A model generated the notes under the pieces. It was not told the DNA's origin. It was given only the letters and a program-made list of their open reading frames with translations, and ran no database searches. The translations under genes and the position numbers were made by a program. A DNA stretch of 64,000 nt, from NCBI GenBank assembly GCA_021810905.1, contig JAJZQH010000014.1:12369-76368 (forward strand), read 5' to 3'. The stretch is from a bacterium. GTDB lineage: Bacteria; UBA10199; 2-02-FULL-44-16; JAAZCA01. Shown here one piece after another: positions 12,574-58,152 of this stretch (position 1 is the stretch's first letter; each line of letters begins with the position of its first letter).

Positions 12574-12647
12574 GGCGGGATAGCTCAGATGGTGAGAGCG
12601 AGGGATTCATAACCCCTAGGTCGACGGTTCGATCCCGTCTCCCGCCA
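12574..12647 (+). tRNA. tRNA with CAU anticodon (elongator tRNA-Met or lysidine tRNA-Ile2)
   Basis: Cloverleaf read by hand. Acceptor stem GGCGGGA pairs with TCCCGCC. D-arm GCTC..GAGC. Anticodon loop TTCATAA. T-arm GACGG TTCGATC CCGTC. A G1-C72 pair argues against initiator tRNA. Confidence 0.8.
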
Positions 12648-43023: not shown

Positions 43024-43137
43024 TTCAAGGGGAATGATTGACCTTGCGGTATTGGTGCTGTAAAAAAGCGATCCGTGTTGAACAGCCGCCGCAATAACGC
43101 AGAGAGTGGGCTATGCGAAAGACGATAATATTGAAAG

Positions 43138-43262
43138 CTCCCCGCGGCAAGCCGCGGGGAATCATCGGCAACATTTCCGATCACCCTCACCCTTCCCTCT
43201 CCCCTCAAGGGAGAGGGTGGCGGAAACCCCGCAGCAAGCTGCGGGGTTTCATCGGATTGGCA
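43138..43262. repeat. cluster of three REP-like hairpins
   Basis: Hairpin a: CCCCGCGG-CAAG-CCGCGGGG at 43140-43159. Hairpin b: 43171-43229, the near-identical copy of the gltB insert, with CCCTCTCCC-CTCAA-GGGAGAGGG. Hairpin c: AAACCCCGCAGC-AA-GCTGCGGGGTTT at 43224-43249. Hairpins a and c are followed by the related tails AATCATCGGCAA and TCATCGGATTGGCAA. Confidence 0.7.
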
Positions 43263-43271
43263 ATCATCTTT

Positions 43272-44939
43272 ATGCTGTCCTCCATCGGCGGGACGGCGCG
43301 GGCTGCGCTCAATCCGTCTTCGCCGTTCCAGGTCTTCTGGGACGACGCGCCGATGACGATTTCCGCTGGAACCCCATTCCATCTCAACGTCACGATCAGG
43401 GCGCCCGAGGGGTATTATCTGTATGCGGATGAGACTGACCTCGATTTTGTGAGCCTGGAAGGCCTGTTTGTAAAAGATATTCGATATCCGCGCCCCATTC
43501 AGTACACCGACCCTTATTTAGGCAAGACAGTTGGTATTTTCAAAGGCGATACGGTCATATCGATAGAAGGCATGGCGCCCGCGGGTCTCGAACCTGGCAG
43601 AAAGGAACTCACCGCTTTATTGCATTTCAGAGGGTGTTCTCCTTCGCTCTGTTACAGGCCGGAAGAGGATGAAATCGCCTTCATACTGGTCGTGGAGCCA
43701 GCGCCGCAGGTGGAGCGAGTCGAACCAAAGAATCCGGACGTGCATGCGCAGGAGGAGTCAACGCCAATGCCCAGGAGCCTGCCGGAGCAGCTGGGGCTCA
43801 AGCACCTGCTGCAGGTTCAGGATTTCTCGACTCTGCTGGGGCGCGGAACTCTCTTTGCGCTGCTCGTCGTCTTCCTTGCGGGAGTGCTGACTTCGCTCAC
43901 GCCGTGCGTCTGGCCCGTGATACCCGTGGTCCTCCTCTATGTAGGTGTGCACCCGCACAAGCGCTTTCTGGAAAACTTCCTCCTCTCGGCCGTGATGGTC
44001 CTGGGGATAGTGGTCACCTATGCCGCACTGGGCATCGGCGTTGCGGCCTTTGGAAAAAACCTGGGTTTCCTCTATCAGCAGCGGTGGTTTTTGGCGCTGG
44101 TCGTGCTCTTCTTCATTGCGATGAGCCTCTCGATGTTCGGGGCCTTTGACATCCGCATGCCGCGCCGCCTTCATGCGCGGCTCCATGCGCTCGGGGGCGA
44201 GGGATACTGGGGCGCCTTCCTGGCTGGCATGGGGCTGGGGCTCGTCGCCTCGCCTTGTTCGGGCCCGGTGCTCGCGGCGCTTTTGGGTTACGTGGCCCTG
44301 CAGGGTAGCTACCTCGTAGGTTTCGGCCTGCTCATAGTCTACGGCCTCGGGATGGGCCTGCTCATGATGCTGCTCGGCGCATGTTACGGAGAGCTTGCCG
44401 GCAAACTCAAAGGGGGCGCGTGGATGCTCTGGATAAGGCGCGCCCTTGGAATCGTATTGCTGTTCCCGGCGGCGTACTACATGGGCGTGCTCTTCAACTG
44501 GAACCCGCAGCACAAGGCCCCTGCGAACGCCGCGCGAATAGAGTGGGTGACCAGTGAAACCGACGCCCTGCGCGCTGCAGCCCAGACGGGTAAATCCGTC
44601 ATGATCGATTTTACGGCCGCGTGGTGTCCGCCGTGCGGAGCGCTCGAACGCAATTTCTTTTCGAGAAACGACGTCATCGGGTTGGGCTTCGAGCTCATCC
44701 CGCTCAGGGTGGACGCAACGTCCGAGACAAAGGACGTGCGGCAGCTCATCGCCAGATACCGCGTCGCAGGATGGCCGACCGTTCTCTTCGTGGGGCCGGA
44801 CGGAACCGTGTACGAGGACCTGAGGGTGAGCGATTACGACCCTCCGGCAATCGAGCGCAACATGCGCGAAGCGATAAAGAGGGCCCATGCTTCTGACATG
44901 CCCGGAATACGCTCCGAACGAGCGACGGAGAAGCGATGA
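43272..44939 (+). CDS. dsbD: thiol:disulfide interchange protein DsbD-like (CcdA-type membrane core plus C-terminal thioredoxin)
   Basis: Transmembrane Cys pair LTPCVWPVIPV and SPCSGPVLAALL. C-terminal thioredoxin FTAAWCPPCGALE. Start uncertain (ATG 43272 or upstream TTG); the long upstream in-frame extension covers the repeat cluster. Confidence 0.75.
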   Translation: MLSSIGGTARAALNPSSPFQVFWDDAPMTISAGTPFHLNVTIRAPEGYYLYADETDLDFVSLEGLFVKDIRYPRPIQYTDPYLGKTVGIFKGDTVISIEGMAPAGLEPGRKELTALLHFRGCSPSLCYRPEEDEIAFILVVEPAPQVERVEPKNPDVHAQEESTPMPRSLPEQLGLKHLLQVQDFSTLLGRGTLFALLVVFLAGVLTSLTPCVWPVIPVVLLYVGVHPHKRFLENFLLSAVMVLGIVVTYAALGIGVAAFGKNLGFLYQQRWFLALVVLFFIAMSLSMFGAFDIRMPRRLHARLHALGGEGYWGAFLAGMGLGLVASPCSGPVLAALLGYVALQGSYLVGFGLLIVYGLGMGLLMMLLGACYGELAGKLKGGAWMLWIRRALGIVLLFPAAYYMGVLFNWNPQHKAPANAARIEWVTSETDALRAAAQTGKSVMIDFTAAWCPPCGALERNFFSRNDVIGLGFELIPLRVDATSETKDVRQLIARYRVAGWPTVLFVGPDGTVYEDLRVSDYDPPAIERNMREAIKRAHASDMPGIRSERATEKR

Positions 44940-46858
44940 GAAAACGCCTAAGCAGGTACGAACGCAGGATCGCCGCGTCATTCTCCGCGTCGCTCCTGTC
45001 TTTGCCGGACGACAGTCCGGAGCTCGCTCCCCTGATGGATCGCATCGAAGACCTTCTGAAGCATTTTACAAAGGACATGCGCCTCGCGTGGAGCCTCTGT
45101 CTGTGGGCGCTGGAATTTCTAGCGATCTTCTACTACGCCTCATTCAAACCGATGTCGCGGATGTCTCCCGAGCTCCGCCTCCGTTATGTAAGCGCCTGGC
45201 ATAACACATGGTGGTCGGTGAAGCGCACGATCAAGCGCTTCCTCGAGGCCGTGGTCTTCATGAACTATTATTCTCTGCCGGAAGTGGAGCGCCGCGTTGG
45301 ATATACGCCGCGTTACTCGCCCGCTCGCGGCGGCCGGGATTTCCCGACGTCCAATCTCGTGAGGGATATTCCCGCGGGAGACGTAAACTTCGATGCGGAC
45401 GTCTGCGTCGTTGGCTCCGGCGCCGGCGGCGCGTTTATCGCCATGGAACTGGCGAAGGCCGGCAGGAAGGTCGTTATAATCGAGGAGGGCGGTTTCTTCG
45501 ACGTGAACGATTTCGGCTACGACGCGGTGACGATGACGAAGAAGCTCTACCGCGCCGGAGGGCTCACCAACACCTTTGGGTGGCCGCCTATACTCGTGCC
45601 TCTGGGACGCTGCGCCGGAGGCACAACCGTAATCAATTCCGGCACGTGTTTTCGGGCGTCGCCCAAGATTTTCGAGTGGTGGGCGGACCGTTTCGGACTT
45701 ACGGGCTGGTCTAACGACGTCATGCTGTCTTTCTACGAACGCGCGGAACGGATACTCGAGGTGGAGCCTGCTAGAAACGAAGTTCAGGGCCGTTCCGCAG
45801 AAATTTTTGCGCGCGGCGCCTCGAAGCTTGGCATTGAAGTGAAGCCTCTGTTGCGCAACGCCCCGGGCTGCTGCGGCAGCGGCGTTTGCTGCTGGGGCTG
45901 TCCAACCAACGCAAAGAAATCCATGCAGCTCAATGCCCTACCGCTGGCGCTACAGTCAGGGGCCGTGCTCTATACGAAGTGCCGGGCCGAACGAATTGTC
46001 TTTGAAGGCAGCAAGGTGTCTGAAGTTCATGCGCGTTTTATCGACCCGGTCGCGCGCAGGAGAGGCGGGAAGTTGACGGTGAAGGCGAAGGTGGTTGTGG
46101 CGGCGTGCGGATCGCTGCATACTCCGGTGTTGCTGGACCGATCCGGGATTCCGGATTCGTCGAGGCAGTGCGGCAGAAACCTCACGCTGCATCCCGCATC
46201 AAAGGTGACGGCGCTATTCGATGAAAATATCCGCGGCTGGTATGGCATTCCTCAGGGCTGTTACGCGGACGCGCTTGTCGAGGAAGGAATAAAGCTGGAG
46301 GGGATATTCCTGCCGCCTGCCTACACGGCTCCTACGATACTTCTCATGGGCGAAGAACATCGAGAGGCCATGATGCGCTACAATAACATGGCCACGTTCG
46401 GGCTCATGGTCTCGGACACGACCCGCGGCAGGGTCGTGCGCGGGATCAATGGACATTCGATCTCACTTTACACGATCAACCGCGAGGATCTGCCGAAGTA
46501 TCAACGCGGAATCACGCTGCTCACAGAGGCTTTTTTTGAGGCGGGCGCACAAAAGGTCTTCCCGGGCATCTGTACGCTGCCTGTCGTGACGAAAGAGCAG
46601 GGCGCCGCTGCAATCGCAAAACTCAGGCTCAGGAACAAGGATCTGGACCTTCAGGCCTTCCATCCCCTGGGCACATGCCGCATGGGCGCAGATCCGCGCG
46701 AGGCGGTGGTCGACCCAAACGGCCGAGTCTACGGGATCGATAATCTCTTCGTTGCGGACGGCTCCATATTCCCCACTGCGCTCGGCGTGAATCCGCAGAT
46801 GACGATCATGGCGGCGGCCCTCAAGATAGCAGAGGGAATCCATCGAGATGTCCTGTAG
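44936..46858 (+). CDS. GMC-family FAD oxidoreductase with about 150-aa N-terminal extension
   Basis: FAD-binding VCVVGSGAGGAFIAMELAKAGRKVVIIEEGG. C-terminal GMC_oxred_C-like region HPLGTCRMGADPREAVVDPNGRVYGIDNLFVADGSIFPT. Confidence 0.8.
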   Translation: MRKRLSRYERRIAASFSASLLSLPDDSPELAPLMDRIEDLLKHFTKDMRLAWSLCLWALEFLAIFYYASFKPMSRMSPELRLRYVSAWHNTWWSVKRTIKRFLEAVVFMNYYSLPEVERRVGYTPRYSPARGGRDFPTSNLVRDIPAGDVNFDADVCVVGSGAGGAFIAMELAKAGRKVVIIEEGGFFDVNDFGYDAVTMTKKLYRAGGLTNTFGWPPILVPLGRCAGGTTVINSGTCFRASPKIFEWWADRFGLTGWSNDVMLSFYERAERILEVEPARNEVQGRSAEIFARGASKLGIEVKPLLRNAPGCCGSGVCCWGCPTNAKKSMQLNALPLALQSGAVLYTKCRAERIVFEGSKVSEVHARFIDPVARRRGGKLTVKAKVVVAACGSLHTPVLLDRSGIPDSSRQCGRNLTLHPASKVTALFDENIRGWYGIPQGCYADALVEEGIKLEGIFLPPAYTAPTILLMGEEHREAMMRYNNMATFGLMVSDTTRGRVVRGINGHSISLYTINREDLPKYQRGITLLTEAFFEAGAQKVFPGICTLPVVTKEQGAAAIAKLRLRNKDLDLQAFHPLGTCRMGADPREAVVDPNGRVYGIDNLFVADGSIFPTALGVNPQMTIMAAALKIAEGIHRDVL

Positions 46859-46971: not shown

Positions 46972-47349
46972 ATGGACGAACTCCAGCGTATGTTCAGGGC
47001 GCTTGCCGATTCGACAAGACTGCGGATAGTCAGGATGCTCGTGATTAAGCCTCTTTGCGTCTGCGAGGTTATGTCCGTGCTTCGCATGGCGCAATCCACT
47101 ACGTCGAAGCACCTGCGTATTCTTCATGATTCGGGGCTCGTCGAAGAGACGCCCGGCGGCACCTGGACAATCTATCGTCTCGTGAAACCGGAGCTCGGAT
47201 CGGCGGCGGAGTATCTTCTTGATCTCATCAAGAAGGCAGAGGTGACGGAGCAATCGAAACGGGACGAGGAACAGGCGAGAGGGGCGGACCGCGAACGAAT
47301 CTGCCGGTTGCGCGCAAAGAAGACAATCAAACGGCAACGGCGGAGGTGA
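46972..47349 (+). CDS. arsR: ArsR/SmtB family metalloregulator
   Basis: ALADSTRLRIVRMLV..PLCVCEVMSVL carries the CVC As(III)-binding motif in helix 3. HTH region TTSKHLRILHDSGLV. Confidence 0.9.
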   Translation: MDELQRMFRALADSTRLRIVRMLVIKPLCVCEVMSVLRMAQSTTSKHLRILHDSGLVEETPGGTWTIYRLVKPELGSAAEYLLDLIKKAEVTEQSKRDEEQARGADRERICRLRAKKTIKRQRRR

Positions 47350-47352
47350 GCT

Positions 47353-48423
47353 ATGGCCGAGAGCGGCGTCAAAAAACGTCTCAATGTATTCGAACGTTAC
47401 CTCACGCTTTGGGTGGCGGCTTGCATGGTGATTGGTGTGGCGATCGGCCGATATTTGCCGGTGGCTACCGATGCGCTGCGGAGATTCGAATTCGGGACGC
47501 AGAGTCACATCAACGTCGTTATCGCTGTCCTCATCTGGCTCATGATTTATCCCATGATGCTCAAGGTCGACTTCGGGTCGATCCTGAACGTCGGGCGTCA
47601 GCCGAGGGGGCTTGCCATCACGCTCTTCGTCAACTGGCTCGTCAAACCCTTCAGCATGGCCTTCTTCGGCTGGCTCTTCTTCCGACATGTCTTCACGCCG
47701 TGGATCGGCCCCGAGATGGCCGACCAGTATATAGCCGGCGTCATCATTCTCGCTGCGGCGCCTTGCACCGCCATGGTATTTGTCTGGAGCTATCTCACCG
47801 ACGGCGACCCGGCTTACACGCTCGTGCAGGTGACGATCAACGATCTTATCATGCTCGTCCTTTTCGCTCCGATCGTGAAGTTCCTCGTCACCGGCGCTTC
47901 GACGCTCGAGGTCCCGTTTGTCGTGCTTGTCTGGGCCGTGGTCTTGTTCATCGTAATTCCACTGACGGCGGGAACCGTCACGCGCGCAATCCTCCTCAAA
48001 GCGAAGAACGCAATTTGGTTCGAGGAGAAGTTCCTCCCGGTCCTCCATCCTGTTTCGATCCTGGCCTTGCTTCTTACGCTCGTCATCATCTTCGCCTTCC
48101 AGTCGGACAACATCACGCAGCGATTCTTTCACGTCATCCTGATCGCGGTCCCGATCCTCATCCAAGTCTACTTCAACTCAACCCTTGTCTATACGCTCAT
48201 GCAGAAGTTCCGTGTCCGATTCTCCATTGCGGCGCCGGGCGCGCTCATCGGGGCATCGAACTTCTTTGAGCTGGCGGTAGCCACAGCCATCGCGCTCTAT
48301 GGCCCGGGTTCTGGTGCTGCGCTGGCTACGGTGGTCGGCGTGCTCGTTGAAGTGCCGGTGATGCTCTCAGTCGTCGGGATCTGCAACCGTACGCGCGGCT
48401 GGTTCGCAAACGCCACACGCTAG
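47353..48423 (+). CDS. acr3: arsenite efflux transporter, ACR3 family
   Basis: MAESGVKKRLNVFERYLTLWV..IYPMMLKV. About ten predicted transmembrane segments. ACR3 family length and pattern. Confidence 0.88.
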   Translation: MAESGVKKRLNVFERYLTLWVAACMVIGVAIGRYLPVATDALRRFEFGTQSHINVVIAVLIWLMIYPMMLKVDFGSILNVGRQPRGLAITLFVNWLVKPFSMAFFGWLFFRHVFTPWIGPEMADQYIAGVIILAAAPCTAMVFVWSYLTDGDPAYTLVQVTINDLIMLVLFAPIVKFLVTGASTLEVPFVVLVWAVVLFIVIPLTAGTVTRAILLKAKNAIWFEEKFLPVLHPVSILALLLTLVIIFAFQSDNITQRFFHVILIAVPILIQVYFNSTLVYTLMQKFRVRFSIAAPGALIGASNFFELAVATAIALYGPGSGAALATVVGVLVEVPVMLSVVGICNRTRGWFANATR

Positions 48424-48437
48424 AAAAGGAGGAATTC

Positions 48438-49319
48438 ATGTTTCGAACGATCCTGATTGCGACCGATCTCTCCGCGGCATCGGAGGAGCTGTGCAAGTGC
48501 GTCGTGTCCCTCAAGAAGATCGGCCCGCGCGAGGTCTGGCTTGCACATGTCTGCAATGTTCGACAGGTAGGAGGGCTGGCGACCTCACTCAAGGAGGAGC
48601 ACCTCGGGGAGCTTGAACGTCAGGTGGGTATCCTCAAACGACATGGTCTCAACGCCAGGGGCGTGATCCGCCAGGGGATTCCTTTCATCGAGATCAATCG
48701 CGAGGCGACGCGGAGGAAGGCGCGCCTTATCGTCGTAGGAAGCCACGGCGAAGGACTTCTCAAGGAGATGCTGATCGGTTCTACTGCCTTCGAAATCATT
48801 CGACAGGGGACGCACCCGGTGCTCGTCTTCCGTCACGAAGTCATCGAACGCGAAGGAAATCGGCGCTGCCTGATGCGTTGCCACGATCCATTCAGGCACA
48901 TCCTCTTCGCTACGGACTTCTCGAAGAACGCGGCGCACGCCCAACTCTTTGTCGACCACATCTGCCGCGAGGCGAGGCCTCGCGTGACACTCGTTCACGT
49001 TCAGGAGAAATCACGGATCGAGCATCACCTAAAGGAACGCCTTGCAGAATTCAATCGCATCGATACCGCGCGTCTCGAGACGATCGCGAATGGCCTTCGG
49101 AAACGGGGGGCGCGGAAGGTCGACATCGCCATTCCCTACGGCCATGCCGTGAAAGAGCTCTTGAAGCTGGAACGGAAGGCGAAACCCACGCTGATTGTGC
49201 TTGGTTCGCAAGGTCGCAGCTGGACAAACGAGCTTTTCCTAGGGAGCGTCGCCCACAACGTCGTCCGGCACGCCAAAACGCCGGTTCTCGTTGTGCCATG
49301 GCGTCCCGCGTTTGCATAA
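48438..49319 (+). CDS. tandem universal stress protein (two UspA domains)
   Basis: Two repeats of the Usp pattern (ILIATDLS ... VVGSHGEG and ILFATDFS ... VLGSQGRS). Confidence 0.8.
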   Translation: MFRTILIATDLSAASEELCKCVVSLKKIGPREVWLAHVCNVRQVGGLATSLKEEHLGELERQVGILKRHGLNARGVIRQGIPFIEINREATRRKARLIVVGSHGEGLLKEMLIGSTAFEIIRQGTHPVLVFRHEVIEREGNRRCLMRCHDPFRHILFATDFSKNAAHAQLFVDHICREARPRVTLVHVQEKSRIEHHLKERLAEFNRIDTARLETIANGLRKRGARKVDIAIPYGHAVKELLKLERKAKPTLIVLGSQGRSWTNELFLGSVAHNVVRHAKTPVLVVPWRPAFA

Positions 49320-49356: not shown

Positions 49357-49695
49357 ATGAATATCGAAATATATGATCCGGCAATGTGTTGTTCGACGGG
49401 GCTCTGCGGGCCGGCGATCGATCCGGTGCTCGTCAGAATGAACGATGCCTTGCTGGCATTGAAAAAACAGGGAGTCGAAATCGAACGGTTCAATCTTGCC
49501 CAGCAGACACAAGCGTTCATGATGAACAAAACGGTCGCCGGCCTACTCCATAAGAACGGAAAAAAGATACTGCCTGTCATTTTTGTCAATGGAGAGGTGT
49601 TCATGACGGGTCGATATCCGTCCTATGAGGAGTTGTGCGAGGTGCTGGGCATTGAACCATTAAAGCAACAACCAATAACGCTGACAGCTCGCTGA
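49357..49695 (+). CDS. arsD: arsenical resistance metallochaperone and repressor ArsD
   Basis: MNIEIYDPAMCCSTGLCGP carries the Cys12-Cys13-Cys18 As(III) site. GGAGAGG ribosome-binding site. Confidence 0.88.
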   Translation: MNIEIYDPAMCCSTGLCGPAIDPVLVRMNDALLALKKQGVEIERFNLAQQTQAFMMNKTVAGLLHKNGKKILPVIFVNGEVFMTGRYPSYEELCEVLGIEPLKQQPITLTAR

Positions 49696-49712: not shown

Positions 49713-50006
49713 ATGCTTACGGTGACTGATAATGCGGTAGAGCGATTCAAAAAAATGCTTCAGGAAAATAGCGGTGAAAATTGCGGGATAAGGATATTCG
49801 CAGCCGGCGGCGGTTGTTGTGGCCCCTCCATGGCGATGGATATGGCGGAAAAAGCCGAAAGTGGAGATGAAACCATTGATGTAAGTGGGCTTAAGATCTT
49901 CCTTGATATAGAGGCGGGCAAATTACTCGGCGGCGCGACAATAGATTACTCTGATCAGCAGGGTTTCATCATAACGGGAATGCCGCGCGCGTCATGCTGC
50001 GGTTGA
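49713..50006 (+). CDS. HesB/IscA-like protein with C-terminal CC motif
   Basis: MLTVTDNAVERFKKMLQEN..IRIFAAGGGCCGPS..IDYSDQQGFII matches the IscA/HesB fold pattern. C-terminal SCCG. Located between arsD and arsA. Confidence 0.6.
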   Translation: MLTVTDNAVERFKKMLQENSGENCGIRIFAAGGGCCGPSMAMDMAEKAESGDETIDVSGLKIFLDIEAGKLLGGATIDYSDQQGFIITGMPRASCCG

Positions 50007-50015
50007 AATTCGGAG

Positions 50016-51818
50016 ATGACGCAGATGACGAAATATCTTTTTTTCTCGGGCAAGGGAGGCGTCGGCAAGACCACGATGGCGTCCTCAACCGCCATTCATC
50101 ATGCGGAGGCAGGAAAACGGACCCTGATCGTGACGACCGACCCTGCCTCCAACCTGGCCGATGTCTTCGAGCAGGAGATAGGGCACGCAATAACGCCCAT
50201 CCGGGACGTGAAGGGTCTCTTTGCCATGGAGATCGACCCCGATGAAGCGACGAGGGAATACAAGGAACGGATCATCGGTCCGTTCAGGGAGGTTATGCCG
50301 GAAGACGTCATCGCGTCCCTCGAGGAAAACTTAAGCGGCCCGTGCACTACGGAGATGGCCTCCTTTGACCGCTTCATCGACTTCATGGAGGACGATGCCT
50401 ACGACGTCATCGTGTTTGATACCGCCCCAACGGGCCACACGATAAGGCTCCTTGAGCTGCCGGTTGACTGGTCCAGGCATATTGAGGAATCCGCAAAGGG
50501 GAGCGGGCAGACATGCCTCGGCCCGGTTCAGTCCATCCAGGAATCGAAGGCAAAATACGACAGGGCGACTGCCCTCCTCACCGCTCCCGACAAAACGAGC
50601 TTTGTCTTTGTCATGAGGCCTGAGGAGCTGTCGCTCTACGAAACCCTCAGGGCATCCCGCGAGCTCGAGACCATCGGTGTAAAATCGGGAGAACTCATCA
50701 TCAACGGCATTCTGCCGGAAGAGGTCTGCGAGATCGCCTTCTTCAGAAAAAAATACGAGGCGCAGCAGCGGGTCATCAAAGAGGCGGAGTCGGCAATACC
50801 AAAACCAACGCGCTTCATGCTCCTTCGGGACAATGAGGTCAAAGGCATAGAGGCGTTACGTGCTATGGCAGAGGAGCTCTACAATGGCACGAGATCTGCC
50901 CCCAGCGTCGAGGGCATGACGTTCCAGGCCGATATCGCCGTGGAGAAGCCGGACGTCGATCGCCTCCTCCTTCCTGCCGGCGAGACGAAGGCGATATTCT
51001 TCACTGGGAAGGGCGGCGTGGGCAAAACGACTGTGTCCTGTATCGCGGCTGTTCATATCGCGCAGAGGGGTTTTAAGACGCTCCTCGTTACGACGGACCC
51101 GGCGGCGCACATCGGGGAGGTGCTCGGCGTGAAGGTCCAGAGCACGCCGACTCTGGTTACGTATAATCTGTACGCCGTCATGGTCGACCAGGAAGAGGCT
51201 TTCAATATCTATAGGGACAGGGTCTTGAGCGAATCCAGAGGCAAATATTCCGAGGACATGATTGCCGCCATGGAGGAAGAGCTGAATTCGCCGTGTACTC
51301 AGGAGATGGCGGCCTTTGACACCTTCATCCAGTTCATCGAAAGCAAGGAGTACGACGCCATCGTCTTTGACACGGCGCCGACGGGTCACACCTTGAGATT
51401 GCTCTCCCTGCCGTTTGATTATGCAAAGCAGATGGAGATGATGGTATCGACGGAAGAGGCTTCGCACGCCGGCAATGTGACGGGCAACAGGTTTCGTGAT
51501 ATCATCGACGTACTGAAAAACAAGAACAAGGCATGTTTCGCTTTCGTCCTTTATCCCGAGTCCACGCCGATTCTCGAATCTTACAGGGCGATGCTGGACC
51601 TCAGGGATGCCGGAATCGAGACGCAGGTTGTTGTCTCCAATATGATGTTGCCGAAAGAGGTCTGTACCAACCATTTCTTTGAGAACAGAAGAAGGATGCA
51701 ACTGAAATATCTGTTGGAAATCGAGGAGAAATTCAATCTGCCGGTCCTGCAGCTACCGCTCTTCCAGGATGAAGTAAAGGGCCTCGGACCGCTGAAAATG
51801 GCGGCGGGAAATTTGTAA
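50016..51818 (+). CDS. arsA: arsenite-stimulated ATPase ArsA
   Basis: Two homologous halves, each with a P-loop GKGGVGKTT, DTAPTGHT signal-transduction motif and metalloid-site Cys (GPCTTEMA and SPCTQEMA). Confidence 0.92.
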   Translation: MTQMTKYLFFSGKGGVGKTTMASSTAIHHAEAGKRTLIVTTDPASNLADVFEQEIGHAITPIRDVKGLFAMEIDPDEATREYKERIIGPFREVMPEDVIASLEENLSGPCTTEMASFDRFIDFMEDDAYDVIVFDTAPTGHTIRLLELPVDWSRHIEESAKGSGQTCLGPVQSIQESKAKYDRATALLTAPDKTSFVFVMRPEELSLYETLRASRELETIGVKSGELIINGILPEEVCEIAFFRKKYEAQQRVIKEAESAIPKPTRFMLLRDNEVKGIEALRAMAEELYNGTRSAPSVEGMTFQADIAVEKPDVDRLLLPAGETKAIFFTGKGGVGKTTVSCIAAVHIAQRGFKTLLVTTDPAAHIGEVLGVKVQSTPTLVTYNLYAVMVDQEEAFNIYRDRVLSESRGKYSEDMIAAMEEELNSPCTQEMAAFDTFIQFIESKEYDAIVFDTAPTGHTLRLLSLPFDYAKQMEMMVSTEEASHAGNVTGNRFRDIIDVLKNKNKACFAFVLYPESTPILESYRAMLDLRDAGIETQVVVSNMMLPKEVCTNHFFENRRRMQLKYLLEIEEKFNLPVLQLPLFQDEVKGLGPLKMAAGNL

Positions 51819-51828
51819 ACGGGTAACT

Positions 51829-52377
51829 ATGCACATTCTCGAAACTGCTAATATGTCGCTGGAGATGGAGGAACGGGTGATTTTAAACGACCTCAGCTTG
51901 TCGGTCGAGGCCGGAACGATCCACTCCATTCTCGGGCCGAACGCCGCGGGGAAGTCAAGCCTGGCCTACGCTCTCATAGGTTGTTGCGACTATTTTCCGC
52001 AAAAAGGTTCCATTCAATTTCTTGGTGAAGATGTTACCGATGCCCCCGTGAGCAAGAGGGCGCGAATGGGCATGACGCTCGCATGGCAGGAGCCCGCCCG
52101 TTTCGAGGGGCTCACGGTAGAAGATTATATTGCCGTCGGTATGCGAGAGAAGAACGACGATGCCATTAACGAAGCACTTCGCCACGTTCTATTGAATCCG
52201 GATGACTATCGACACAGAGCGGTCGATAAAACCTTGAGTGGCGGGGAGAGAAAACGAATTGAGCTCGCCGCCATCTTCCGTACCAGAATGCCGGTGGGGT
52301 ACCCGCGGTTTTTAAACGCTCCGATATCGCCCATCTCATCGTCCATAGGAACAAGGTCATCGGCAGCACGACGGTGA
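51829..52377 (+). CDS. SufC-like ABC ATPase, apparently truncated or frameshifted after the LSGGE signature (possible pseudogene)
   Basis: Walker A GPNAAGKSS, Q-loop and signature LSGGERKR are present. No Walker B, D-loop or H-loop. An H-loop-like piece (DIAHLIVHRNKV) sits in the reading frame of the next gene upstream of its GTG. Confidence 0.55.
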   Translation: MHILETANMSLEMEERVILNDLSLSVEAGTIHSILGPNAAGKSSLAYALIGCCDYFPQKGSIQFLGEDVTDAPVSKRARMGMTLAWQEPARFEGLTVEDYIAVGMREKNDDAINEALRHVLLNPDDYRHRAVDKTLSGGERKRIELAAIFRTRMPVGYPRFLNAPISPISSSIGTRSSAARR

Positions 52378-53186
52378 AGGGATTGATACTCGAGCCGAAA
52401 GAATCCGCTGCGGGGGTTGATATACGACTGACAGTACAGCGAGGGGTAAAAATTGAAAATCTTGTGCATCTCTGTTTTGGCGTCCTTCCAAAGGAAGGCG
52501 TTCAGGAAATTAACATCAATGCGCTGATTGAGGATGACGCCGGAGTTAAGCTTCTTGCCCATTGCGTCTTTCCCAATGCCGTTAAGGTGGTCCATAAAAT
52601 GTTGGCCGATATTACGATCGGCAACAACGCTTATTATGAATATAATGAGGTGCATCATCACGGCGAAGGCGGCGGCATCGAAGTTGTTCCAAAGGCGAAA
52701 ATCAGGGTTGGTAATAACAGCAGTCTGACGACGACATTTTCCCTACTCAAGGGCAGGGTGGGTGTATTCAATCTGGACTACGAAACGGAGGTCTTGGACC
52801 ATTCTTCACTTGATATGACGGCAAAGATCTACGGTTACGGTGACGACCAGATACTAATCAGAGAGGCTGGGCGCGTTATCGGCGAATCCTCTCGAGGCCT
52901 CCTCAAAAGCCGCGTTGCCCTGAAAGAGAATGCTATGTGCGAGATTGTCAACGAACTTACCGCCTCCGCCAGCGGCGCCAGGGGCCACGTTGACTGCGTG
53001 GAGATCATCCAGGGCAGCGCTACGGCAAAGGCCGTTCCTATCGTCCATGTGACGAACGAATTCGCGCAAGTCACCCACGAGGCAGCCATAGGCAGGGTGG
53101 ACAAAAAACAGGTTGAAACCCTGATGGCGCGGGGACTTGATGAAGAAAAGGCCATTGACGTCGTGGTTGGCGGATTTCTCAAGTAA
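52374..53186 (+). CDS. SufB/SufD-family beta-helix protein
   Basis: C-terminal SufBD signature GHVDCVEIIQG...HEAAIGRVDKKQVETLMARGLDEEKA..VVGGF. GTG start overlaps the SufC-like end. Confidence 0.7.
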   Translation: MKGLILEPKESAAGVDIRLTVQRGVKIENLVHLCFGVLPKEGVQEININALIEDDAGVKLLAHCVFPNAVKVVHKMLADITIGNNAYYEYNEVHHHGEGGGIEVVPKAKIRVGNNSSLTTTFSLLKGRVGVFNLDYETEVLDHSSLDMTAKIYGYGDDQILIREAGRVIGESSRGLLKSRVALKENAMCEIVNELTASASGARGHVDCVEIIQGSATAKAVPIVHVTNEFAQVTHEAAIGRVDKKQVETLMARGLDEEKAIDVVVGGFLK

Positions 53187-53206
53187 TTTCAAAACAGGGG
53201 GATAAT

Positions 53207-53575
53207 ATGAAAATAGCAATTCTCATGTGCGCATGCAGCGGGGTGTGTCCCAGTATGGCGAAGATCAATTTCTTCGATCTCATGGAAAGGTTGAGGCTCG
53301 AAGTGCCGCACGATTTCATGGTTTTGCACCCGCGCCTGTGCGAGGAAAACGGCGAGGCCCTTATGCGGGACCTGCTCAAGCCTGATACGGTCTACGTCAC
53401 GCCAGCCTGTAACGAAAAACATCAGATGAAGCTCCTTGCGGCCGGCTTTTCGAAGGCCGGCGTGCCCATGGATGATAAGCACTGGATTCCGGTGACGCTC
53501 GCGCAGAAGGACACCGACCAGGCGTTTGCGGATATCAAGGCCGCCGTTGAAAAGGCGAAGGGGATCGCGTCATGA
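53207..53575 (+). CDS. Cys-rich protein, tentatively MvhD/FlpD-like
   Basis: KIAILMCACSGVC ... FMVLHPRLCEENGEALMRDLLKPDTVYVTPAC follows the spacing of the FlpD pattern KIavFlCnwC ... VriirvpCsG...GADgVlv.gC. Weak, motif-level call only. Confidence 0.4.
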   Translation: MKIAILMCACSGVCPSMAKINFFDLMERLRLEVPHDFMVLHPRLCEENGEALMRDLLKPDTVYVTPACNEKHQMKLLAAGFSKAGVPMDDKHWIPVTLAQKDTDQAFADIKAAVEKAKGIAS

Positions 53576-53850
53576 AGAAGACCTACCTAGGCGTCCCGCG
53601 CGAAGAGATTCCGTGGTATCCCCATATCAACGCCGATCTGTGCACGTTGTGCGGTGCGTGCAAGGAGTTCTGCCCGAACGATGTGTTCGAGGCTGGCGTC
53701 GAGTGCATGCTCGTCAAGAATCCGATGAACTGCGTCGTCGCTTGCGACAAGTGCGCGGCTGAGTGCCCGATTGCGGCGATCTCATTCCCCGACAAGGCCC
53801 AGCTGCTCAAGTGGGTCGAGGAAGCCAAGAGCAAGAAAGGAACGACATGA
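53572..53850 (+). CDS. 2x[4Fe-4S] ferredoxin
   Basis: Two cluster motifs: CTLCGACKEFCP and CVVACDKCAAECP. Confidence 0.8.
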   Translation: MKKTYLGVPREEIPWYPHINADLCTLCGACKEFCPNDVFEAGVECMLVKNPMNCVVACDKCAAECPIAAISFPDKAQLLKWVEEAKSKKGTT

Positions 53851-54335
53851 AAGCGCGCAAAGCCATCAGAAACGCTTTGCGCATCGTCCTTTTGCTCATC
53901 GTCGCGGGGAGCGTCGGATATCTCTTCGCGAAGGATTACGTGTGGAACGGCGGCGAAATGCCTGCCCCTGTAGCCGCTCCTTCGGCCACGCCCGACCACG
54001 TCGTCGCTTACTATTTCCACAGCAATTTCCGCTGCGTGTCCTGCCGAGAGATCGAGGAATATTCCCGCGCGGCGATCGAGGAGGGCTTCCAGCTGGAGTT
54101 GAAAGACGGCCGCCTCTCGTTCGAGGTCGTCAATGTTGAGGAGCCGCAGAATCGCCATTTCATCCGTGACTACTCCCTTGTCACGAAGTCGTTGGTGCTA
54201 GTGCTCAAGGACGGCGACCGACAGGTGCGCTTCAAGAACCTCGATTTCGTCTGGCAGCTCCTTGGTTCTCCCGACCAATTCAAAATATATGTCCAGAATG
54301 AGGTCCGCGGATTTCTCGGTGAGGTGCGACGATGA
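53847..54335 (+). CDS. membrane-anchored thioredoxin-like CxxC protein (possible ArsF-like nitro-arsenical reductase subunit)
   Basis: Start set at MKARKAIRNALRIVLLLIVAGSVGYLF, an N-terminal transmembrane anchor. Thioredoxin-like YYFHSNFRCVSCREIE. Confidence 0.55.
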   Translation: MKARKAIRNALRIVLLLIVAGSVGYLFAKDYVWNGGEMPAPVAAPSATPDHVVAYYFHSNFRCVSCREIEEYSRAAIEEGFQLELKDGRLSFEVVNVEEPQNRHFIRDYSLVTKSLVLVLKDGDRQVRFKNLDFVWQLLGSPDQFKIYVQNEVRGFLGEVRR

Positions 54336-55015
54336 CGTTCCTCGGACTCCTCTCGGCCCTGTGGCTGGGACTCTTGACCTCCGTTTCTCCGTGTCCTCTT
54401 GCGACGAATGTCGCCGCTGTTTCCTTCGTCTCGCGACGTTTTTCAAATCATACAGCCGTGCTTTCGGCGGGGGTGCTCTACACGCTGGGGCGCGTTTTTA
54501 CCTACACGTTGCTCGGCGCATTCCTCGTCACAGGTCTCATCAATGCATCCCGCATCTCCTTCTTCCTGCAATTCTCTATTGGGAAATTCCTTGGCCCTGC
54601 GATGATCCTCGTAGGCATGGTTGTCTTGGATCTCATTAGAATTCCCCTCCCGAAGGGGAGGTGGCTCTCTCGCATGGAGGAACGCGCCGGACGATGGGGA
54701 CAACCCGGTTCGGTTGTCCTGGGCATCCTCTTCGCGATTATGTTTTGTCCCGTCTCGGCTGCGCTTTTCTTCGGTGGGTTGATTCCGCTTGCGGTAGAAC
54801 AGAAGTCGTCATTTCTCCTGCCAACGCTGTACGGGATCGGGACCGGTCTTCCGGTGGCACTCTTTGCCGTTTTCTTTGCAGTCGGTTTGAAGCGGGTGGG
54901 CAGGATCGTCCATCGCATGGCGAGCGTGGAAATATGGGCGCGTCGCGCGACAGGCGTCATCTTCATTCTTATCGGGCTGTACGAAACATATCTCGCTTTG
55001 CGAGGCGCTGCATGA
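54332..55015 (+). CDS. ccdA: CcdA/DsbD-family transmembrane thiol-disulfide electron transporter
   Basis: Conserved transmembrane Cys in LTSVSPCPLATN and a second in FCPVSAALFFGG. Six predicted transmembrane segments. Confidence 0.7.
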   Translation: MTFLGLLSALWLGLLTSVSPCPLATNVAAVSFVSRRFSNHTAVLSAGVLYTLGRVFTYTLLGAFLVTGLINASRISFFLQFSIGKFLGPAMILVGMVVLDLIRIPLPKGRWLSRMEERAGRWGQPGSVVLGILFAIMFCPVSAALFFGGLIPLAVEQKSSFLLPTLYGIGTGLPVALFAVFFAVGLKRVGRIVHRMASVEIWARRATGVIFILIGLYETYLALRGAA

Positions 55016-55032
55016 TCTGAAAGGAGCTGTTC

Positions 55033-55326
55033 ATGGAAATCAAAGTTCTCGGACCCGGATGCTCCAATTGTCAAACGCTGATCGAGCGCGTCGGAAAGGC
55101 CGTTCAAAAGGCGGGCGTCGAGGCGACGATCACCAAGGTGACGGATTACGACGAGATGCTCTCTTACGGCATCATGAGCACGCCTGGGCTCGTCATCGAT
55201 GGGAAGCTCATAATGAGCGGCAGGGTGCCGTCCGTTGACGAAATTACAAAATTGATCGCAGACACAAATGTGGCGGTGGCATCGGTGAGCGCTGGAGGCA
55301 AATGCAGCTGCGGCAGTTGCTGCTGA
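55033..55326 (+). CDS. small thioredoxin-family protein (redox-active disulfide protein 2 type) with Cys-rich tail
   Basis: MEIKVLGPGCSNCQTL matches the TM0983/MTH895-like CxxC thioredoxin pattern. C-terminal GGKCSCGSCC. Confidence 0.7.
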   Translation: MEIKVLGPGCSNCQTLIERVGKAVQKAGVEATITKVTDYDEMLSYGIMSTPGLVIDGKLIMSGRVPSVDEITKLIADTNVAVASVSAGGKCSCGSCC

Positions 55327-55337
55327 GAGGAGGAAAT

Positions 55338-55565
55338 ATGTCAGGAAGTTTACCGGATAATACTCGCGAACTGGTTGCAATGGCGGCTTCGGTTGCCTGC
55401 GGCTGTGAGCCCTGCCTCAAATACCATTACGACGCTGCTAAAAAAGCCGGTTGCAGCGTGAAAGAAATGACCGATGCGGTCGGTATCGCCATGATGGTCA
55501 AACAGGCACCGCTCAAAGCCATGGAAGAGCTCACACAACGATTAGGTATACGGAAGGGGGCATGA
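55338..55565 (+). CDS. AhpD-like (carboxymuconolactone decarboxylase family) protein
   Basis: VACGCEPCLKYH matches the AhpD-core CxxC motif. Strong GGAGGAAAT ribosome-binding site before ATG 55338. Confidence 0.65.
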   Translation: MSGSLPDNTRELVAMAASVACGCEPCLKYHYDAAKKAGCSVKEMTDAVGIAMMVKQAPLKAMEELTQRLGIRKGA

Positions 55566-55630: not shown

Positions 55631-56089
55631 ATGACGCGACTCAAGATATTGTTTCTCTGCACCGGCAACTCCTGCCGCAGCCAGATGGCGGAGGGATGGG
55701 CGAAGCATCTCCTTGGGGATGATGTCGAGGTATACTCCGCTGGCGTCGAGGCGCACGGACTCAATCCACGCGCGGTCAAGGTCATGGCCGAGGCGGGCGT
55801 GAACATATCCGGACAGAAATCGAAAACAATCGAGGAACTGGGCGATTCCACGTTCGATGTGGTCATAACGGTCTGCGACCGGGCGCGCGAGTCTTGCCCG
55901 ATCTTTCCCGGGAATGCTGAGAAGATCCATCGTTCTTTCGACGATCCGCCGAGCTTGGCCGAGGAAGCGAAAACCGAAGAGGAAGCCCTGGAGCACTACC
56001 GCCGCGTGCGCGATGAAATCCGCGCGTTCGTTGAAACATTGCTGGACATCTTGAACAACACGGGGAAAAAATCGGAAGAGCAGGCGTGA
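55631..56089 (+). CDS. arsC: arsenate reductase, LMW-PTP (thioredoxin-coupled) type
   Basis: P-loop [16 protein letters not shown], with downstream Cys in CDRARESCP. Confidence 0.88.
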
Positions 56090-56131: not shown

Positions 56132-56560
56132 ATGAAAGATCAATACATCAAGAGCATTCTCTTTCTGTGTACGGGCAACGCCTGTCGCTCGCAGATGGCT
56201 GAAGGGTTTGCGCGTGAAATGCTGCCTCCGGGATGGCGGGTGTACAGCGCGGGAATTAAGGCGTCGGGCCTGAATCAGCGGGCGGCGGCGGTGATGAGCG
56301 AGGTCGGATTCGACATCTCAAGCCAGCGTTCAAAGACGCTGGACGAAATTCCCGTGGACGATATCGATTACGTGATCACGCTGTGCGGCCATGCGAGGGA
56401 CATGTGCCCAGTATTTCTACGTGCGGTGTTCACAGAGCACTGGCCGATAGACGACCCGATTCGATCCGAAGGAACGCCCATGGAGCAGCGGGTCTTTCGC
56501 AGTACGAGGGATGATATCCGGCGCCGCGTGCAGGACCTTGCGAGGCGTCTGAAGGGGTAG
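56132..56560 (+). CDS. arsC: second LMW-PTP-type arsenate reductase paralogue
   Basis: [16 protein letters not shown] and CGHARDMCP. Confidence 0.85.
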   Translation: MKDQYIKSILFLCTGNACRSQMAEGFAREMLPPGWRVYSAGIKASGLNQRAAAVMSEVGFDISSQRSKTLDEIPVDDIDYVITLCGHARDMCPVFLRAVFTEHWPIDDPIRSEGTPMEQRVFRSTRDDIRRRVQDLARRLKG

Positions 56561-56563
56561 TGA

Positions 56564-57511
56564 ATGTTCGATCTTATCGCCAGCAGGATCGTATACCGCC
56601 TGCTCTCATTCGAGCAAGGGACGTATGCAGGCGACGCCGTGCATTTTTTCGTCATGGACGTGATGAAGATCTTCGTGCTGCTCGCGGTCGTCATCACGCT
56701 CGTCAGCTATCTCCGCTCGTATTTTCCGGCGACGCGCTCGCGCATGTTGCTGGCCGGACGCAAGCGTTTCGGCTATCCCCTGGCCGGCGGCCTTGGAGTC
56801 CTGACTCCGTTCTGCTCGTGTTCGGCGGTGCCGATGTTCATAGGCTTCATCGAGGCCGGCATCCCGCTCGGCGTAACGATGACCTTTCTGATAGCGAGTC
56901 CCACCGTAAACGAGATAGCGATAGCGCTGCTCTTCGGGCTCTTCGGCTGGAAGGTGACGACTATCTATATAGCGAGCGGGCTCGCGATTGCGATCGTCGG
57001 CGGCATCATAATCGATGCGCTGAAGATGGAGAGGCACGTTGAGGACTACGTGTGGAATCTGCGCTTCGACAACGTGTCCGATGCGGTGATCCCTTCGCAG
57101 CGGGAGAGAATAGTACAGGCCGTCGCGCACATGCGTTCGATCATCTCGAAAATCTGGATATTCGTCTTCGTCGGCATCGGTATCGGCGCTACGATCCACG
57201 GTTTTGTCCCTGCATCGTGGATCGTGGAGCACTTGGGCGCCAGGCAGTGGTGGTCGGTGCCAGCGGCGGTGCTGATAGGCGTGCCGCTCTACGGCAACGC
57301 TGGCAGCACTCTCCCCGCGATTGGAGAGCTCATCGCCAAGGGCGTGCCGCTGGGCACGGCGCTGGCGCTCATGATGTCGATCACCGCGATCTCGCTGCCG
57401 GAACTCATCCTGTTGCGACGAGTGCTCAAACCCCGGCTGCTTGCGGTATTCGTAGGAATCGTTGCCGCGGCGATCGTCTGCGTGGGCTATCTCTTCAACG
57501 CGATCCTGTAA
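56564..57511 (+). CDS. arsP: ArsP-type permease (DUF318) with TPFCSCS motif
   Basis: Eight predicted transmembrane segments. Conserved VLTPFCSCSAVPMF, the motif reported for organoarsenical efflux permease ArsP (recalled from the literature, not searched). Confidence 0.75.
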   Translation: MFDLIASRIVYRLLSFEQGTYAGDAVHFFVMDVMKIFVLLAVVITLVSYLRSYFPATRSRMLLAGRKRFGYPLAGGLGVLTPFCSCSAVPMFIGFIEAGIPLGVTMTFLIASPTVNEIAIALLFGLFGWKVTTIYIASGLAIAIVGGIIIDALKMERHVEDYVWNLRFDNVSDAVIPSQRERIVQAVAHMRSIISKIWIFVFVGIGIGATIHGFVPASWIVEHLGARQWWSVPAAVLIGVPLYGNAGSTLPAIGELIAKGVPLGTALALMMSITAISLPELILLRRVLKPRLLAVFVGIVAAAIVCVGYLFNAIL

Positions 57512-57588: not shown

Positions 57589-58152
57589 GTGGATAAGGCT
57601 AAAACGCGCGGCATGGAAAACCTGATCAGGGAAATGCTCTCAAAGCTCGGCGAAGATCCTTCGCGCGAGGGGCTCCGCAAGACGCCAGCTCGCGTGAAGG
57701 AATCGCTCGGATTCCTGACCGAAGGTTATCGCCAGGACCCTCGCGCGCTCATCGAAAATTCTGTATATTCGGACAAGCACGAGGAGATGGTGCTCGTGCG
57801 GGATATTCCCATCTACAGCCTCTGCGAGCATCACCTGCTGCCGTTCTTCGGCACTGCGCACGTGGGTTACATTCCCAACGAAAAGATCGTGGGGATCTCC
57901 AAGATCGCGCGCATGGTCGATCTCTTCGCGCGCAGGCTCCAGGTGCAGGAGCGGCTCACCAATCAGATTGCTGAGACGCTCATGGAAGTACTCAAACCCA
58001 AGGGAGTGGCGGTAGTGATCGACGCGGAGCACCTCTGCATGCAGATGAGGGGAGTGCAGAAGCGCGGCACCTCGGTCGTCACATCCTCAATGCTCGGCGC
58101 GTTCCGCCGTAAGCCCGAGACGCGCGCGGAGTTCATGAATCTGATCAAGTAA
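57589..58152 (+). CDS. folE: GTP cyclohydrolase I
   Basis: CEHHLLPF and [16 protein letters not shown] are signature motifs. Start could be MENLIRE at 57613. Confidence 0.9.

Follow-up and report, generated by a model that had tools for sequence, protein, structure and literature searches.

A putative iron-sulfur protein and ferredoxin gene pair found among arsenic resistance genes, in a possible mosaic of accessory modules from an uncultured anaerobe

Chen, Zhang and Rosen reportedly found in 2019 that ArsEF of Shewanella putrefaciens 200 nitro-reduces trivalent roxarsone and nitarsone and that ArsG exports; the ArsE, ArsF and ArsG names in NCBIfam derive from that work. The CcdA/DsbD relay, in turn, runs from a cytoplasmic thioredoxin through CcdA to an anchored periplasmic thioredoxin-like protein (ResA, CcmG). 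Genes resembling both systems lie in a 3.7-kb block (positions 51829-55565) of the 64,000-nucleotide stretch of DNA analyzed here (the window), where eight co-directional open reading frames (ORFs) are embedded in an arsenic resistance (ars) island between arsA and two copies of arsC. Other parts of the island recall other described systems. In SmsC of Methanocaldococcus jannaschii SmsC2B2, residues C218, C239 and C242 are the ligands of a [4Fe-4S] cluster (PMC12192291); MvhD carries a [2Fe-2S] cluster that relays electrons from hydrogenase to HdrA (PMC13580544); and folE has been reported as a resistance determinant of an ars operon in Brevundimonas (PMC9144182).

We propose, with middling confidence, that the block is a mosaic of four accessory modules, each gained and lost separately in the island of this uncultured anaerobe, and that a supply of reductant is a suitable working model for what it does. 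The modules would be smsC'-smsB', the remnants of a minimal, SMS-type iron-sulfur (Fe-S) scaffold inactivated by a 321-bp deletion; a translationally coupled pair, specific to ars islands, encoding an MvhD/HdrA-like Fe-S protein (hereafter the Cys protein) and a 2x[4Fe-4S] ferredoxin; arsF-arsG-arsE; and a gene for an AhpD-like CxxC protein. ArsEFG, SmsCB, AhpD and ferredoxin are known parts. What is new is the ars-specific pair of MvhD-fold protein and ferredoxin, together with the finding that ars islands have repeatedly taken up and lost SMS and HesB genes.

The neighborhood of the pair was assembled from three contig look-ups plus the 80 loci retained from a metagenome scan that turned up 140 relatives; these 83 loci were scored by tblastn with the island proteins. 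The ferredoxin gene lay directly downstream of the Cys-protein gene in all 78 loci with room for it, and a core ars gene was present in 43 of the 53 loci of at least 5 kb; by a rough estimate, ars genes would be present in a random 16-kb window by chance in ~1% of cases. The association extends over a protein identity range of 55-96% and is seen in more than 15 sampling projects. A universal stress protein (Usp) gene was found in 39 of the 83 loci and was the commonest immediate upstream neighbor, lying directly upstream of the pair in 22. The other genes found, again out of 83 loci, were those for ACR3 (36), ArsR (28), ArsE (23), ArsD (19), ArsA (18), ArsC1-type reductases (16), ArsM (15), AhpD (13), ArsP (12), ArsC2-type reductases (7), ArsF (7), ArsG (4) and SmsB (3). 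When the neighboring ORFs were clustered without bias, Usp, ACR3, ArsR, ArsE, ArsC, ArsD, ArsM and ArsA recurred.

The pair thus occurs with or without ArsFG and with or without SmsCB. In the clade in which the Cys protein is at least 90% identical to that of the window, the order Cys protein-ferredoxin-arsF-arsG-arsE is kept in the window and in loci L001/L093, L092 and L095, and arsM is inserted in this order in L082/L089, which belong to the same clade. At a much greater distance, L018 and L026 carry, just upstream of SmsC-SmsB, a ferredoxin and a Cys protein of 30% identity in which all five Cys recur; ArsR, ArsE-like, AhpD-like, CoA-binding and permease genes accompany this divergent pair. 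Genes for a B12-binding radical SAM protein and a SPASM radical SAM protein adjoin the pair in L086 (8875-11701) and L101, and in L112 only the B12-type radical SAM gene was found beside it. Such neighbors may point to organoarsenical biosynthesis or modification needing electrons at the level of ferredoxin.

No Pfam (E value up to 0.01) or NCBIfam model, the FlpD domain included, matched the Cys protein, and a PDB sequence search with its profile returned only noise at E values up to 10. Its family comprised 49 clusters by indexed search and 97 representative clusters by exhaustive profile search of 1.84 billion proteins. Apart from one marginal match of 1261 amino acids (E value, 4.1e-4), all members of these clusters are short and stand alone; a search of a plasmid collection found no homologue. 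Residues C8, C10, C14, C45 and C68 are invariant and fall in the motifs CxCSGxCPSM, HPRLCEE and TPAC. The AlphaFold2 (AF2) model (predicted local distance difference test [pLDDT], 93; predicted template modeling score [pTM], 0.88) has a four-strand alpha/beta fold in which the Cys appear to sit at the C-terminal ends of strands 1 to 3 or just past them. With this model as the query, the best Foldseek matches were HdrA chains (E value, 8.7e-5; query TM-score, 0.67), followed by MvhD-type chains (E values, 2.6e-3 to 9.5e-3), and the HdrA/MvhD matches had probabilities of 0.96-1.00 and query TM-scores of 0.47-0.67. Judged from the modeled fold, the Cys protein is probably an Fe-S electron carrier.

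The resemblance is therefore to MvhD and HdrA of the Mvh/Fdh-Hdr complexes (PDB 5odc, 7bkb and 8rvu), which supplied the best Foldseek matches, and it extends to gene order, in that a ferredoxin gene adjoins the Cys-protein gene as MvhB does in mvhDGAB (PMC13580544). Unlike MvhD and HdrA, however, the Cys protein is a stand-alone protein of 122 amino acids with a different Cys motif and without detectable sequence similarity to them, and no hydrogenase or Hdr genes lie near it. The first Cys motif of its ferredoxin partner, CTLCGACKEFCP, is canonical, and the second, CVVACDKCAAECP, is CxxxC spaced. Ferredoxins paired with a Cys protein share an N-terminal (V/I)PRExIPW(Y/A)PxI(D/N) before the first CxxCxxCxxxCP (window, 53572-53640; L018, 6830-6900; L026, 8654-8720), a motif that would mark a distinct, unnamed subfamily. 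In the window, 4-bp overlaps occur at four junctions (52374/52377, 53572/53575, 53847/53850 and 54332/54335); at the second of these the ferredoxin start overlaps the Cys-protein stop, and overlaps of this kind join the Cys-protein gene, the ferredoxin gene, arsF and arsG in one chain.

Downstream of the pair, arsF, arsG and arsE are adjacent and co-directional (53847-55326), and by their matches to curated profiles this trio of anchored thioredoxin, CcdA-type protein and small thioredoxin is the described ArsEFG set. The initial annotation had pointed to a link between a CcdA-like and thioredoxin-like pair, named ArsE and ArsF, and the reduction of nitroaromatic arsenicals; this was sound in substance, and the assignment needs correction, since ArsG is the CcdA-like protein, and ArsF and ArsE are the anchored and the small thioredoxin, respectively. 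In the ArsF alignment, a basic N terminus and a single hydrophobic helix are followed by a linker rich in Pro, Ala and Ser and by an invariant YYFH..RCxxC; the CxxC is kept in 10 of 10 homologues. No Pfam family matched ArsF. Its AF2 model (pLDDT, 89) has a thioredoxin fold, its top Foldseek matches were all thioredoxins, and by the positive-inside rule its thioredoxin domain is predicted to face outward. In ArsG, C21 and C139 were kept in 7 of 7 homologues, and the match to Pfam DsbD_TM (24.6 bits) fell under the 27.1-bit cut-off. The ArsE CxxC was kept in 43 of 44 homologues; the Cys-rich C-terminal tail GGKCSCGSCC (55290-55326), present in 3 or 4 of the 44, may be a metalloid-binding extension.

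In their anatomy, ArsE, ArsG and ArsF correspond exactly to a CcdA-type transmembrane thiol relay, with a cytoplasmic CxxC protein, a DsbD_2 membrane protein with two invariant Cys and an anchored CxxC protein of thioredoxin fold; electron transfer through it is a prediction by analogy. The domains, Cys and anchor needed for the outward relay described by the initial annotation are thus all present. The locus differs from CcdA/DsbD systems in having no cytochrome c maturation context and in the curated name of its membrane protein, which is that of an efflux permease and not of an electron transporter. Like ArsEFG of S. putrefaciens 200, the three adjacent genes pass the ArsF, ArsG and ArsE cut-offs and lie inside an ars operon. 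Unlike that set, they are coupled to an upstream Fe-S protein/ferredoxin pair, their host is an uncultured anaerobe and their ArsE has the additional Cys-rich tail. The gene after them most likely starts at 55338 rather than at 55302, because a GGAGG motif stands in front of the former. Its AhpD-like product also matches the AhpD domain of ArsM-AhpD fusion selenoproteins, and the gene is a recurrent, variable add-on of these islands.

The first two ORFs of the block proved not to be intact genes. The metagenome contig L001 carries the same island with an intact 247-amino-acid ATPase and a 305-amino-acid partner, and comparison with it revealed a clean 321-bp deletion in the window between 52278 and 52279. 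Lost with it are, from the ATPase gene, the Walker B motif, H-loop, C-terminal Cys triad and stop codon and, from the SufBD-like gene, the first 11 codons, so that the window smsC lacks catalytic motifs and cluster ligands. What remains of the ATPase ORF is 150 genuine residues, ending right after the LSGGERKR signature, and a 32-residue out-of-frame tail with its stop TGA at 52375-52377; the ABC_tran and SufC profiles cover it only at profile positions 1-157 of 243. The idea that the tail is the ATPase's own C terminus in another frame was rejected, as the tail is the N terminus of SmsB. The listed smsB ORF starts at GTG 52374, giving 270 amino acids versus ~311 in SufBD-like homologues, and a 195-amino-acid protein (P0087) is identical to the C-terminal part of the window SmsB. 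Because the truncated ATPase product is recorded on four contigs from several assemblies, the deletion allele is probably real rather than a one-off assembly error.

Intact relatives of this Suf-like pair are, by sequence comparison, of the SMS type and not the SUF type. The L001 ATPase matched M. jannaschii SmsC (9h78_A) with an E value of 9.4e-77 and 261 bits, versus 108 bits for SufC, and the SmsB relative P0001 matched SmsB MJ0034 (9h7y_B) with an E value of 7.9e-68, versus 8e-6 for SufB. The C-terminal Cys of the L001 ATPase (LMC...ELCVPC) align with C218, C239 and C242 of SmsC. Thus, the intact ars-linked relatives resemble SmsC2B2 of M. jannaschii (PMC12192291) in matching SmsC/SmsB far better than SufC/SufB and in keeping the equivalent ligands, and the window copy differs from it in being a deletion remnant: the set of Walker A and B, H-loop and Cys triad is complete in the L001 relative and incomplete in the window copy. 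The NCBIfam SmsB model scored the window SufBD-like protein at 66.6 bits against a cut-off of 650.

A further step of loss was found in L082-L085, which share the flanks of the window (DAC, DsbD, GMC oxidoreductase and arsR on one side and folE on the other) and a Cys protein 96% identical to that of the window. These loci lack hesB, smsC and smsB and keep arsA-Cys protein-ferredoxin-arsM-arsF-arsG-arsE. Their 102-bp spacer between arsA and the Cys-protein gene holds an ATG and the last 57 nt of smsB, encoding GLDEEKAIDIVVGGMLK*. In view of this scar, we conclude that the SmsCB pair stood at this site ancestrally; it is now disappearing, and the genes downstream of it are retained. L092 likewise has lost SmsCB and kept the rest of the block. 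Two side observations concern the same region. The arsM gene of L082 (10109-10915; 336.6 bits with the NCBIfam arsenite methyltransferase model, cut-off 263) lies between the ferredoxin gene and arsF; the window has no arsM, and what it carries instead are an AhpD-like gene and one additional arsC. Between smsB and the Cys-protein gene, L001 (10721-11499) and L095 have two Com_YlbF-family genes each and L096 has one, and the window has none.

A census of SmsB gave a picture different from that of the pair. Scanning one genome per species yielded 459 loci with SmsB-like relatives, the best 80 of which, plus L001, were scored for a strict ars gene (ACR3, ArsA, ArsD, ArsC, ArsF or ArsG) within 10 kb. 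Among these 81 loci, 11 lay near such a gene and 70 did not: 7 of 32 at 60% or more identity to the window copy, 3 of 8 at 55-60% and 1 of 41 below 55%, a group made up mostly of Dehalococcoidia and Methanosarcinaceae. In 75 of 76 loci, SmsC immediately preceded SmsB. These counts mark SmsCB as a general Fe-S system, of which one subclade, at 55-88% identity and with an ars gene nearby in 10 of 40 loci versus 1 of 41 for more distant relatives, has entered ars or thiol-stress islands of many phyla. The initial annotation had held that finding the block in relatives without ars genes would speak against an arsenic role; SmsCB is indeed mostly found away from such genes, whereas the Cys-protein/ferredoxin pair is almost always among them.

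The island also holds a HesB/IscA-like gene between arsD and arsA. At the ligand positions of its product, vicinal Cys pairs (GGGCCGP and a C-terminal SCCG) replace the usual C...CGC; these pairs recall the As(III)-binding pairs of ArsD. L001 and L104 have the gene and L082 does not, and in L023, L025, L027 and L028 a hesB homologue lies directly upstream of SmsC.

From arsR through folE, the 46.9- to 58.2-kb region is a single co-directional string of genes on the + strand, in the order arsR, acr3, tandem Usp, arsD, HesB/IscA-like, arsA, the eight ORFs of the block, two arsC copies, arsP-like and folE (Table 1).

Table 1. Features of the arsenic resistance island; bit scores are given against the cut-off of the model where there is one.
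Feature	Positions	Strand	Evidence
arsR, ArsR/SmtB-family regulator, start of the island	46972..47349	+	NCBIfam NF033788, 84.7 bits vs 55
acr3, arsenite efflux transporter	47353..48423	+	TIGR00832, 371.9 bits vs 282.8
Tandem universal stress protein (Usp) gene	48438..49319	+	Weak Usp matches in the window; Pfam Usp in relatives
arsD, metallochaperone	49357..49695	+	NF033727, 126.5 bits vs 90; Pfam ArsD, 134.7 bits
HesB/IscA-like A-type Fe-S carrier variant	49713..50006	+	TIGR00049, 60.2 bits vs 58.8; Pfam Fe-S_biosyn, 41.1 vs 26.3
arsA, two-domain arsenite pump ATPase	50016..51818	+	TIGR00345 (GET3/ArsA subfamily), 462.8 bits vs 135
smsC remnant, SMS-type Fe-S scaffold ATPase, first 150 codons	51829..52278	+	ABC_tran and SufC profiles; 321-bp deletion vs L001
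smsB remnant, SufBD-core protein without its first 11 codons and native start	52279..53186	+	Pfam SUFBD_core, 56.7 bits vs 27
Cys protein, 122 amino acids, unnamed family	53207..53575	+	Five invariant Cys; AF2 fold; Foldseek HdrA/MvhD chains
2x[4Fe-4S] ferredoxin, 92 amino acids	53572..53850	+	Pfam Fer4, 33.7 bits vs 21.1
arsF-family gene	53847..54335	+	NF040494, 106 bits vs 60
arsG-family gene, CcdA/DsbD_2-type membrane protein	54332..55015	+	NF040495, 265.9 bits vs 200; Pfam DsbD_2, 54.8 vs 24.9
arsE-family gene, small thioredoxin-like CxxC protein	55033..55326	+	TIGR00412 (MTH895/ArsE), 104.8 bits vs 62; Pfam Thioredoxin_3, 99.8 bits
AhpD/CMD-like CxxC protein, motif CGCEPC	55338..55565	+	Pfam CMD, 56.4 bits vs 23; TIGR00778, 38.1 vs 27.8
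arsC copy 1, low-molecular-weight-phosphatase, thioredoxin-type arsenate reductase	55631..56089	+	Best match TIGR02691 (pI258 family), 160.9 bits vs 174.3
arsC copy 2, thioredoxin type	56132..56560	+	Best match TIGR02691, 158.8 bits vs 174.3
arsP-like permease	56564..57511	+	Pfam ArsP_1 on the L001 and L082 orthologues
folE, GTP cyclohydrolase I, directly after arsP	57589..58152	+	NF006825, 270 bits vs 174

All eight ORFs that the initial annotation placed in the block are there, the first two being the remnants described above, and its gene list omitted the HesB/IscA-like gene. Of its eight gene labels, seven stand, and the eighth, that of the Cys protein, stands at the level of the fold. Its SufC-like and SufB/D-like labels were right and can be made more precise as SmsC and SmsB; the ferredoxin, CcdA and AhpD-like labels agree with Pfam matches above the cut-off; the anchored thioredoxin-like label agrees with the AF2 model and its Foldseek matches; and the label of MvhD/FlpD-like protein fits the fold of the Cys protein (Foldseek) and not its sequence (no Pfam FlpD match). 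Among the flanking ars genes that it named, ArsR, ACR3, ArsD and ArsA score above NCBIfam cut-offs, the two arsC copies fall just under theirs and arsP is recognized through Pfam matches of its relatives only. The ArsA equivalog models gave 509-656 bits for the window arsA, under the cut-offs of those models, and the NCBIfam transporter matches of the arsP-like permease were sub-threshold only. The ESCP Cys can be seen in the sequence of arsC copy 1, which is absent from L082 and L001; copy 2 has an orthologue in both.

The genes upstream of the island (DnaE, HflX, LipB, a DAC-domain protein, DsbD and a GMC oxidoreductase) are housekeeping genes, and the island is therefore chromosomal. Directly upstream of arsR, at 43113-46858, lie genes for a DsbD-type thiol-disulfide transporter (608 amino acids) and a GMC-family oxidoreductase (640 amino acids), an arrangement kept in L082-L085. 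At the other end, L082 has an HNH gene and two DUF4116 genes between arsP and folE. No sharp boundary in GC content was found across the island. A promoter and terminator scan of 46.5-58.5 kb gave counts no better than those for shuffled sequence, so operon structure is read from gene spacing only. At the gathering threshold, the single Rfam match in the 64-kb window was a tRNA gene (12574-12647), far from the island.

In the working model, the ferredoxin and the MvhD-like protein would form a short chain of three Fe-S clusters. Low-potential electrons from the ferredoxin pool of the anaerobe would enter through this pair and pass to the thiol-based components of the island, to ArsE and on through ArsG in the membrane to ArsF, and also to both ArsC enzymes of the thioredoxin type, the AhpD-like protein and, in relatives, ArsM. 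The island would thus have its own reductant supply, and SmsCB with HesB would be an optional kit for Fe-S maturation or repair under arsenite stress that the lineage can spare and is losing. A more specific version, which we advance only tentatively, is that the pair is an ars-dedicated, ferredoxin-driven functional analogue of thioredoxin reductase in strict anaerobes, keeping ArsE-type thioredoxins reduced and, through these, ArsC, ArsM and the ArsG/ArsF relay. Several observations weigh against supply of reductant by the pair. Usp and ACR3, its commonest neighbors, have no obvious need for electrons. The low counts of ArsF and ArsG mean that the link to ArsEFG is not general. Unbiased clustering of neighbors found no universal large redox enzyme adjoining the pair, and no donor or acceptor enzyme adjoins it in every locus. 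Many of the metagenome loci, moreover, come from one sediment project (Ga0315), so that the counts are not independent; in the loci outside that project, a hand count gave a core ars gene in 15 of 19.

The main rival holds that SmsCB, HesB and the pair are an arsenic-inducible spare scaffold, carrier and set of arsenite-tolerant electron carriers, which would deliver no reductant to ars enzymes and would sustain Fe-S metabolism when clusters and vicinal thiols come under attack by As(III). We think this possible, if on balance doubtful. SmsCB and HesB are repeatedly found in the company of the pair where ArsFG is missing (for example, in L007, L017, L018, L024, L026 and L081); the divergent Cys protein and ferredoxin stand just upstream of SmsC-SmsB, as HesB does directly in four loci; Usp and ACR3 need no electrons; and back-up of a target within ars operons has a precedent in folE (PMC9144182), which also follows arsP in the window. 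Yet the pair is retained where SmsCB is broken, as in the window, or deleted, as in its nearest relatives, it is translationally coupled to arsF and arsG in the window, and the arsenite tolerance of the Fe-S carriers is presumed. A narrower proposal is that the block is an anaerobe's version of ArsEFG with its donor attached, the pair giving electrons to ArsEF for nitro-group reduction of roxarsone or nitarsone and ArsG exporting the amino products. Low-potential ferredoxins are reductants of nitroaromatics in anaerobes, the three genes score above the NCBIfam cut-offs for ArsF, ArsG and ArsE, and their order behind the pair is kept throughout the clade with at least 90% identical Cys proteins. 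Against this, the pair is mostly found without ArsF (7 of 83 loci) and ArsG (4 of 83) and sits with the inorganic-arsenic genes for ACR3, ArsD, ArsA and ArsC. This broad association without ArsFG argues against donation to nitroreduction as its general role, and we consider the proposal unlikely.

The initial annotation had joined all eight genes, the Suf-like pair included, into one co-adapted electron relay. The genes are co-directional and tightly packed, and L001 has the same order with smsCB intact. However, the window smsC lacks Walker B, the H-loop and cluster ligands, SmsCB is missing from L082-L085 and L092, which have the rest of the block, SmsB occurs in only 3 of the 83 pair loci, and no strict ars gene lies near 70 of the 81 SmsCB loci. 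The Suf-like pair is broken in the window and gone from its closest syntenic relatives; this deletion and the scar left in those relatives have already largely refuted the single relay, which we now regard as very improbable. We give no more credence to the view that the non-ars genes are passengers of a recombination-prone island with no arsenic role. It would fit the way in which arsM, hesB, smsCB, ahpD and the second arsC come and go among close relatives, but it does not fit the presence of core ars genes in 43 of the 53 pair loci of at least 5 kb, against the roughly estimated ~1% for a random 16-kb window.

The combination had been described as looking unreported. In a limited search of the searchable literature, Sms or MvhD-like genes in ars islands were not found, and nothing specific was found on Suf/Sms genes, or on a ferredoxin with Usp, in ars operons.

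In anoxic sediments, aquifers and paddy soils, arsenic is detoxified largely by uncultured anaerobes, whose ars islands are rich in unnamed genes. The Cys-protein/ferredoxin pair, rare overall and found almost exclusively among ars genes, provides two concrete candidate ars genes. ArsEFG, described as nitroreductase subunits plus an efflux permease, has the complete anatomy of a relay, which may prompt re-examination of its mechanism. The capture and loss of genes of the ancient SMS scaffold in ars islands bears on whether arsenite physiologically targets Fe-S biogenesis in anaerobes. If the pair does act as a ferredoxin-driven analogue of thioredoxin reductase, thiol-dependent arsenic detoxification in these organisms would be independent of NADPH.

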